A DNA stretch of 64,000 nucleotides from Escherichia phage WPEC3. Numbering within the stretch: the stretch's first letter is position 1; every line of letters begins with the position of its first letter. The stretch lies in sequence record PV611058; one strand, given 5' to 3'. The notes under the pieces are model-generated. The model worked only from the letters and a program-made list of their open reading frames with translations. It did no database searches and was not told where the DNA came from. Below are positions 48,017 to 48,628 of the stretch, piece by piece. Both the position numbers and the translations under genes were made by a program.

Positions 48017-48628
48017 TTAATTGTGATTATTCAATTTCTTTTGTTCTTTTTTTAGAGCTTTCATATGTCGTCCAAAATCACGAACATGCCATATATGGTC
48101 GGTTTCCCATAGTTCTGTACGTAAACGGCGTTCTTCCAATTCTTCTGGAGTAGGAATTTTAGATTTCTTCTTATCTTTATTGAAAAAATCATTCATATGC
48201 TCTTCCAGTAGATTTCTACCCTTAACTTTTTCCAGGAATTCATCTACTGATTCAGTTTTATTAGAACGAAGACTGTTACAACGTGAACACATGGTGTTGT
48301 AATTTGACTCTAAATCAGGTCCACCCTTAGATGCTAGTTGGTTATGATCTACTGTCATCAGTACTTCATATAGACCACAAACTGCATAGACATTTAAGTG
48401 AGGTTTACCATATACCGGATCAGTGCTATGTGAACGCTCAATGCGAACTTCAGTGGCTTCAATACCACACGCAACGCATTTACGATTCTTAACGAATGTA
48501 AGTACTTTTTGTGGGAAGTATCGGAAAGTAACACCGTTATATGTATAGCGTTTCATCTGAGTACTTCTTTGATTTAACTCATCAAGAAGTGATAGTTTGG
48601 CAACATAGTAGACCTGATATTTTGACAT
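48017..48628 (-). CDS. HNH endonuclease (possible free-standing homing endonuclease)
   Basis: CxxC ... TVDHNQLASKGGPD ... N ... CSRCN arrangement typical of the HNH/His-Me finger; basic C-terminal tail. Confidence 0.6.
   Translation of the reverse strand: MSKYQVYYVAKLSLLDELNQRSTQMKRYTYNGVTFRYFPQKVLTFVKNRKCVACGIEATEVRIERSHSTDPVYGKPHLNVYAVCGLYEVLMTVDHNQLASKGGPDLESNYNTMCSRCNSLRSNKTESVDEFLEKVKGRNLLEEHMNDFFNKDKKKSKIPTPEELEERRLRTELWETDHIWHVRDFGRHMKALKKEQKKLNNHN

Follow-up and report, generated by a model that had tools for sequence, protein, structure and literature searches.

The HNH nuclease gene of Escherichia phage WPEC3 is best explained, with a probability that we put at roughly 55%, as an ancient free-standing gene of the homing type, which has become the stable third cistron of a late spanin unit and which probably persists through homing or marker exclusion. 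We analysed the gene within a stretch of 64,000 nucleotides of this phage (sequence record PV611058), hereafter the window. On its own the gene matters little, since large phages commonly carry free-standing HNH genes and an annotation of this one already exists in GenBank. What changes is its reading: the gene is an ancient and selectively maintained passenger of a spanin operon, followed by a terminator that is ancestral to the site. The locus offers a clean natural experiment, combining occupied sites, empty sites and two adjacent conversion tracts, on whether marker exclusion is what maintains homing-type nucleases that have long been fixed.

The HNH protein, the spanin unit and its boundary

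The open reading frame at 48017..48628 on the minus strand encodes 203 amino acids from an ATG start to a TAA stop. It coincides exactly with the HNH endonuclease gene of the original prediction, which had been made from the sequence alone, and both Pfam and PHROG matches agree with that assignment. The protein matches PF01844 (HNH) with 26.4 bits (E 7.7e-6), above the curated cut-off of 21.4 bits, and PHROG 23285 “HNH endonuclease” over its full length (E 9e-114). All 16 family members tested match both HNH and HNH_5 of Pfam; at E ≤ 1, the same 16 sequences gave neither a match to an accessory DNA-binding domain, NUMOD or similar, nor one to Endonuclease_7 (PF02945). Searches with PADLOC and NCBIfam returned sub-threshold matches only (HNH cores of type IV restriction enzymes, IscB), which places the protein outside any defence system or named family. 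No second HNH of the same type was found among the 142 open reading frames of the window. The PHROG 23285 family is confined to Rak2-like jumbo phages, with orthologs such as 121Q gp513, PBECO4 gp059, K64-1 gp012, RaK2_00012, Munch gp184 and fHe-Yen9-04 g156, from which the window protein does not differ in length, domain order or genomic site. A 100% identical protein is present in Ecwhy_1, EC.P1 and fEgEco12, and the Ecwhy_1 and fEgEco12 copies already carry the annotation “HNH endonuclease”; the literature that we searched holds generic remarks and no functional study of any PHROG 23285 member.

The catalytic core spans residues 51–121 (48266..48478, minus strand), as delimited by invariant alignment columns and by the AF2 fold. 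In an alignment of 16 sequences, C51, C54, E64, P76, H77, N79, Y81, D94 and H95 are invariant, as are G102, G103, N109, C114, C117 and N118, and the same residues are kept in nine phage orthologs at identities down to 23–35%. They are arranged in the order C51xxC54, β-hairpin insert with E64, P76, H77, N79 and Y81, D94-H95, G102-G103, N109 and C114xxC117-N118. The pairs C51/C54 and C114/C117, both invariant, are the two CxxC pairs of a structural zinc site, and the last metal ligand is Asn, which assigns the domain to the H-N-N variant of the zinc-knuckle HNH core. In the AF2 model (pLDDT 83.9), core strands at 87–95 and 110–114 and a helix at 115–121 form the ββα unit, flanked by an N-terminal β/α domain and by a helical C-terminal tail of lower confidence; the N-terminal β domain and a C-terminal H-x-(W/V)-...-K-x-L-K-K motif are also conserved. 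The best match of a phmmer search of PDB sequences was McrA, at E 0.4, and Foldseek gave zero matches below E 0.1 against the PDB. The non-significant matches to solved structures are all HNH cores (McrA, ScoMcrA, Gme HNH, I-PpoI, Cas9 HNH), and with no solved homolog at significance a prediction of the target has no structural guide; the predicted viral structures that matched are orthologs and other phage HNH proteins. Overall, the protein is an active-looking HNH (H-N-N) zinc-knuckle nuclease, which would be expected to cleave DNA.

The gene lies among spanin genes, an ACP-like gene, a nucleotidyltransferase gene and DUF7325. Directly upstream and on the same strand are the spanin neighbours that had been named from the sequence, now supported by PHROG 1152 and by a lipobox. 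The i-spanin gene (48942..49316, minus strand) encodes 124 amino acids with an N-terminal transmembrane segment and matches PHROG 1152 “Rz-like spanin” (E 1.2e-27), and the o-spanin gene (48631..48945, minus strand) encodes a lipoprotein of 104 amino acids with the lipobox LISGC (PHROG 2425, E 4e-22). The lipobox Cys17 of the latter is invariant across 15 orthologs, together with C38 and C77, and the o-spanin label is already used in the annotations of K64-1, Munch and XbC2. The three reading frames are tightly packed: the o-spanin start overlaps the i-spanin stop by 4 nt, and the HNH ATG stands 2 nt past the o-spanin stop, with a GAGGA ribosome-binding site (RBS) within the o-spanin 3′ end. 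Such packing is general, the distance from o-spanin stop to HNH start being 0–12 nt in every HNH-bearing phage, and in all of them a Shine–Dalgarno sequence is located at the o-spanin end or immediately past it.

A candidate T4-type late promoter, CTAAATA, is found at 49344..49350 (minus strand), ~28 nt upstream of the i-spanin ATG. The motif (C/T/G)TAAATA recurs ~30 nt before the i-spanin ATG in most of 16 phages, often preceded by a terminator hairpin; XaC1 shows no clear copy. For CBB and GAP32 a similar motif, ATAAATA, has been predicted to act as a late promoter (PMC5259590). We infer from this arrangement that i-spanin, o-spanin and HNH form a discrete transcription unit whose genes would be co-transcribed late in infection.

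Downstream, motif and hairpin searches combined with cross-phage comparison delimit a boundary module at 47969..48016 (minus strand). It consists of a −10-like TATGAT (48011–48006), a 13-bp hairpin beginning 9 nt after the HNH stop (48008..47979), a T-run (47980–47973) and the RBS GGAG of the next gene (47972–47969); a −35-like TTGAAT hexamer lies inside the HNH 3′ end (48034–48029). In HNH-less relatives, the o-spanin stop is immediately followed by the same series of −10-like element, hairpin, T-run and RBS, 52–75 nt in total, and in five of these phages the module includes a good TTGACA-17-TAAAAT promoter. The HNH reading frame thus occupies the exact gap between the o-spanin stop and the promoter/hairpin module. 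As the same module is present where the HNH gene is not, the hairpin is the ancestral boundary of the spanin unit and not a terminator brought in by HNH. The “own terminator” previously ascribed to the gene is therefore right as to a hairpin and T-run, and wrong as to their belonging to HNH. No intron was recognised at the locus, where Rfam gave no match and the HNH gene interrupts no host reading frame; tRNA and Rfam searches over 45–50 kb gave zero matches.

Two other elements of this neighbourhood deserve mention, and may outweigh the HNH gene in interest. At 46592–47177 (minus strand), 0.8 kb downstream of HNH, there is a 0.6-kb ORF-free stretch with a promoter and a terminator, which is conserved above the surrounding genes and occurs in 3–5 copies per genome in Rak2-like phages. 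It contains a multi-copy RNA candidate of ~560 nt, in which 39 of the 76 predicted pairs show compensatory changes and for which Rfam gave no match. The nucleotidyltransferase gene of the close relative TH47 contains a LAGLIDADG intein of 344 amino acids, placed exactly between the residues that correspond to D320 and C321 of the window protein (nt 50075/50076 of the window). The window allele is intein-free, which gives a pair of intein-free and intein-bearing alleles of this gene. The nearest relatives of the intein, at 32% amino acid identity, are in nucleotidyltransferase genes of mycobacteriophages.

Occupied sites, empty sites and the age of the gene

The phage of the window is a Rak2-like jumbo coliphage. 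The window region is 99.2–99.5% identical to EC.P1, Ecwhy_1, fEgEco12, Turkey3, vB_Ec-M-J and WPEC5, with 99.5% for Ecwhy_1, and ~84% identical to the 121Q/PBECO4 group (Asteriusvirus, Rak2-like). All eight near-identical relatives have HNH in the same place, as do ~25 relatives at 84% identity. Counted by organism, the gene is at this site in 31 of 32 Escherichia, 10 of 10 Klebsiella and 8 of 8 Salmonella records. In total, the site is occupied in ~55 records and empty in seven sequenced phages and four IMG/VR contigs; note that the IMG/VR locus search used the Dps-like gene as query, and that the o-spanin alignment is without a conserved stretch. The occupied sites comprise those of all sampled Asteriusvirus except EJP2, of Alcyoneusvirus, of the Munch-like phages, and of XaC1, Hallingskeid and fHe-Yen9-03/04. 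The order i-spanin/o-spanin/HNH was read directly in K64-1, RaK2, Munch, fHe-Yen9-04, Hallingskeid, 121Q, A4, Turkey5, XaC1, PBECO4 and ph0011, and also in two metagenome contigs and four Munch-like IMG/VR contigs. It is kept even where the outer neighbours differ, as in XaC1 and between 121Q and the window.

Empty sites are those of GAP32, CBB, XbC2, Kaldavass, Serratia BF, the pEa_SNUABM phages (e.g. pEa_SNUABM_47), EJP2 and the four IMG/VR contigs. They are clean, with the 52–75 nt described above in GAP32, CBB, BF, SNUABM_47, XbC2, Kaldavass and EJP2. In the organism list of the protein search, no HNH homolog was found elsewhere in the empty-site phages at E < 1e-5, which together with the empty sites indicates that the gene is dispensable in those lineages. 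An intergenic nuclease reading frame with a precise occupied/empty polymorphism is the classic arrangement of a free-standing homing endonuclease gene. The presence/absence among relatives that the original prediction anticipated is thus borne out at the exact site, as the seven named phages show, and the polymorphism exists only between deep lineages. Nor is this a gene of some other function retained by all relatives, since its nuclease motif is invariant and several lineages dispense with it.

The divergence of HNH runs parallel to that of the spanins, from 84% down to 26% amino acid identity. Relative to the window, HNH, i-spanin and o-spanin are 84, 78 and 71% identical in 121Q, 49, 60 and 46% in K64-1, 40, 46 and 43% in Munch, and 29, 34 and 40% in fHe-Yen9-04. 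Over a broader sample, the HNH protein is 84% identical to the window in 121Q/PBECO4-type phages, 82% in A4, 77% in ph0011, 65–67% in Turkey5/JNE01, 47–49% in K64-1 and RaK2, 40–46% in Munch and its relatives, 39–46% in Hallingskeid, 29–34% in fHe-Yen9-03/04 and 26% in XaC1. Neighbour-joining trees built from HNH and from the concatenated spanins agree in topology, and there is therefore no direct sign of HNH moving independently of its flanks. Within Asteriusvirus, dN/dS of HNH is 0.07–0.16, with dS at 1.3–2.3 and hence saturated; the constraint equals that on the Dps-like gene and exceeds that on o-spanin, the ACP-like gene and dn1. Co-divergence, congruent trees and a low dN/dS at saturated dS all indicate that the gene is old and under constraint. 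By this comparative evidence, HNH of the window lineage is an old gene that has descended vertically along with the spanins and has been maintained by selection.

When presence and absence are placed on the spanin tree, two losses suffice and no gain is needed. A scheme of three to four independent losses, or of a gain in fHe-Yen9-04, was replaced by these two losses together with the cassette exchange described below. A lesion that looks real was found in SD-1_S14, where a 58-nt frameshifting deletion removes the C-terminal third of HNH. The frameshifts of CMSTMSU were discounted as three homopolymer deletions in an UNVERIFIED record, and that of SHEFM2K, due to two extra A in an A7 run, is uncertain.

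Recombination tracts and the weighing of explanations

Two recombination tracts end at the 3′ border of HNH. The window and 121Q are on average 82% identical, and the sole long tract at least 98.5% identical to 121Q in the 64-kb window starts right after HNH. In a three-way comparison, 121Q equals PBECO4 everywhere except over 47074–47935, where it equals the window: 141 consecutive informative sites are PBECO4-type on the side of the spanins and HNH (48700–48008), and 97 of 99 are window-type from 47935 to 47074. The crossover from PBECO4-type to window-type sequence (dn1, dn2) falls, by informative sites, within 47935..47989. This site pattern implies that 121Q received a window-type tract of ~0.9 kb, with the upstream crossover 28–82 nt past the HNH stop; the HNH gene itself was not transferred.

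The second tract is that of fHe-Yen9-04. On both flanks of the locus this phage and BF are sisters, with 80–92% identity in g151, g152, dn2 and nc2, versus 59–76% between fHe-Yen9-04 and GAP32 in the same genes. In acp, i-spanin and o-spanin the sister signal is gone, with identities of 55, 71 and 68% to BF versus 49, 70 and 65% to GAP32. Likewise, the spanin tree places fHe-Yen9-04 basal to the whole HNH-less Mimasvirus/Eneladusvirus clade, whereas the Dps tree makes it sister to BF. From this conflict between flanks and block, and between trees, it follows that a block of ~1.7 kb from acp to HNH has a history in fHe-Yen9-04 that differs from that of the backbone, and one end of the discordant block is the HNH 3′ boundary. 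Both junctions, in 121Q and in fHe-Yen9-04, lie in the conserved island formed by the hairpin module, a stretch in which ordinary homologous recombination would be expected to produce crossovers. The two tracts fit double-strand-break repair provoked by a nuclease at this border and do not prove it.

The scenario that we favour, an ancient homing-type gene, would combine these observations as follows. Long ago, HNH would have inserted into the small space that separates the o-spanin stop from the promoter/terminator hairpin, and from then on would have stayed linked to the spanin genes, moving with them as a single block. Its transcription would start at the spanin late promoter and end at the pre-existing hairpin, with translation beginning from an RBS of its own in the 3′ end of o-spanin. 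Late in mixed infections, the nuclease may nick or cut the DNA of a related phage, HNH-less or bearing another allele, near the boundary between the spanins and the downstream genes; repair by recombination could transfer the HNH-linked block, or the sequence flanking it, to the rival genome, which amounts to homing or “marker exclusion”. Selection on the nuclease would be maintained in this way, and junctions at the border would be accounted for. Other loci of this phage group are already known to have free-standing HNH homing endonuclease genes (PMC5259590). On the other side, vertical descent, deletion and ordinary cassette recombination explain the pattern without homing, and the gene is fixed in three genera, in which no empty target is known, with dN/dS of only 0.07–0.16. 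Once fixed, an element that is purely selfish should degenerate, so that this low ratio speaks against homing.

The same constraint is what lends weight to domestication, i.e. to a nuclease that serves the phage and not its own spread, in a role tied to the late or lysis programme such as clearing or processing of DNA or exclusion of competitors; we regard this as a possible but distinctly less probable explanation. It is favoured by selection at the level of the Dps-like gene (at saturated dS), by the presence of HNH throughout the sampled members of Asteriusvirus proper, Alcyoneusvirus and the Munch-like phages, by the tight translational coupling to o-spanin, by a linkage that survives a change of both outer neighbours, and by conservation of the whole architecture, terminal domain and motif included. 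However, whole lineages with the same spanins, neighbours and lifestyle do without the gene or a detectable paralog, the protein has neither a signal peptide nor a membrane segment, one natural truncation exists (SD-1_S14), and we know of no precedent for a nuclease acting with spanins. More specifically, and still more tentatively, the nuclease may have been a selected part of a three-gene late “spanin–HNH” module ever since the ancestor of the Rak2-like jumbo phages. The module would then be a hitherto unrecognised partnership of a lysis operon and a nuclease, serving either as a weapon in phage–phage competition that drags linked spanin alleles into rivals or in late DNA processing coupled to lysis.

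The remaining explanations fare far worse. That the gene is a decayed relic, an inactive former nuclease kept as a DNA-binding or structural remnant, might be argued from the Asn in place of His as the last metal ligand and from the lack of a significant solved-structure match beyond the core. Active enzymes such as I-HmuI and T4 endonuclease VII are H-N-N variants too, and all catalytic and zinc ligands are invariant across a family under strong purifying selection, which makes a relic very unlikely. Hardly any credit is left for a recently inserted homing endonuclease gene marking a recent event in the window phage, which is how the original prediction read the intergenic position and the empty sites of some relatives. 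The eight near-identical relatives and the ~25 at 84% identity share the site, HNH has diverged together with its flanks to the point of saturated synonymous sites between alleles, and its GC and GC3 equal those of its neighbours; the truly recent mobile element nearby is the TH47 intein instead. Equally implausible is a packaging nuclease that works with terminase, as does HK97 gp74, a terminase-associated packaging HNH. Such a role appears only in generic statements of genome papers (PMC7760394, PMC11273794). In 121Q, the 21 kb upstream and the 53 kb downstream of the ortholog contain no annotated terminase, the window gene has neither a terminase nor a portal gene as its neighbour, and it is absent from sister phages that package their DNA normally. 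Moreover, phages of this T4-like group have an endonuclease VII homolog elsewhere in their genomes (PMC5259590).

Comparison with known systems

By both structure and sequence, the nearest solved neighbours of the window protein are HNH proteins of the McrA and Gme type (6ghc, 5zmm, 4h9d). They have in common the ββα-metal fold, the CxxC...CxxC zinc site and the pattern “VDH...GG...N...C..C”. The alignment is limited to a core of ~45 residues (Foldseek E > 0.1, phmmer E 0.4), in which the phage protein ends in an Asn ligand instead of His, and its N- and C-terminal domains are unrelated and without a modification-reading domain.

T4 endonuclease VII (gp49), a late-expressed enzyme, also has the order CxxC ... 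D-H ... CxxC-N and a His-Asn-Asn set, and like the window gene it belongs to a T4-like phage. In contrast to endonuclease VII, however, the window protein has a 39-residue β-hairpin insert between the first CxxC and DH, it gives no Endonuclease_7 match, and its gene is dispensable in sister phages. It is not a member of the endonuclease VII family.

The closest parallel in genome organisation is provided by T4-like phages with free-standing HNH homing endonucleases (Edgell et al. 2010, as cited in PMC5259590), mobA–E, among which MobE is located between nrdA and nrdB; homing and “marker exclusion” have been described for the T4 seg and mob genes. The window gene resembles the seg and mob genes in position and in patchy distribution. 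As with the mob genes, a small HNH reading frame sits in a short intergenic gap between conserved genes and borrows neighbouring transcription signals, with clean empty sites in some relatives and recombination junctions alongside. Beyond the HNH core there is no detectable sequence kinship with the mob genes, and no NUMOD-type module was found. Unlike the sporadic mob and seg genes, the window HNH is fixed and has diverged with its flanks over at least three genera, with dN/dS of ~0.1.

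Boundary downstream of the HNH gene and a decayed copy

The 3' side of the HNH gene is occupied by a boundary module (window 47969-48016), which in phages lacking this gene lies 3' of o-spanin (e.g. at 2756-2829 and 2786-2859 of the relatives' loci L007 and L005, respectively). It consists of a sigma70-like promoter, TTGACA-17-TAAAAT in the HNH-less phages, with the -10 box directly 5' of a strong hairpin, followed by a T-run and an RBS, and this arrangement is kept across genera. Because the strong hairpin and T-run directly abut the promoter -10, the start of the downstream transcript overlaps the terminator of the upstream late unit. 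Among ~55 copies of the HNH gene, the only convincing sign of decay is a 58-nt deletion in Salmonella phage SD-1_S14 (L022:798; gene nt 398-455, corresponding to about 48174-48231 of the window), a frameshift that removes the C-terminal helical third and spares the catalytic core.

Gene conversion in 121Q and a candidate structured RNA

In the region around the HNH gene, 121Q and PBECO4 are 97-100% identical except at window 47074-47935, where 121Q carries a window-type tract of ~0.9 kb that includes the phrog_6343 and DUF7325 genes. The tract arose by a recent gene conversion event involving two lineages of Asteriusvirus.

An ORF-free element of ~560 nt (46592-47177, minus strand) separates the ORF at 46088-46516 from the DUF7325 gene, and its position is kept in all Rak2-like phages checked (syntenic copies are found, for example, at L003:5247-5778, L005:3548-4079 and L002:5469-6020). 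A -35 of the TGAAAC type and the extended -10 TGnTATAAT precede the 5' start of the element, and its 3' end is formed by a hairpin and T-run, then a conserved CCCCTGCGGGGGG hairpin. Within Asteriusvirus, the identity of the element reaches 92-100% versus 70-88% for the flanking genes, and each genome displays 3-5 places that match it by blastn, unannotated for the most part. RNAalifold on 11 sequences of the element gave compensatory double changes in 39 of the 76 pairs; an Rfam search at E<=1 returned no match. We consider this element a candidate for a large structured RNA family.

Genes upstream of the spanins and the TH47 intein

An acyl-carrier-protein (ACP)-like gene (49370-49825, minus strand; PHROG 18343 and weak ACP PHROGs) is always present just upstream of the spanin pair, beside an RlaP-family nucleotidyltransferase gene (49797-51035, minus strand). 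The two adjoin in the window, without the ~3.4 kb of tail-fibre genes that separate them in 121Q, A4 and Turkey5. ORFs of 169, 173 and 188 aa lie in tandem at 51436-53036, also on the minus strand; with their common motif D(R/T)...(I/L)(I/L)E.KY.LSK, they look like a small family of tandem paralogs.

In the neighbourhood of the HNH gene, the mobility polymorphism that is truly recent is an intein in the nucleotidyltransferase gene of a relative, Escherichia virus TH47. This gene, intein-free in the window, carries in TH47 an in-frame insertion of 1,033 nt (L040:4194-5226) at ...HGYD/CKHAMH... (window 50075/50076, minus strand), around which the two phages share 98% nucleotide identity. The insertion encodes a 344-aa intein with an N-terminal Cys, a LAGLIDADG_3 domain and a C-terminal HGN followed by Cys. 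Among Escherichia phage records, the nucleotidyltransferase intein is present only in TH47; its closest homologs (32% aa identity) are inteins in the nucleotidyltransferase genes of Mycobacterium cluster-C phages.
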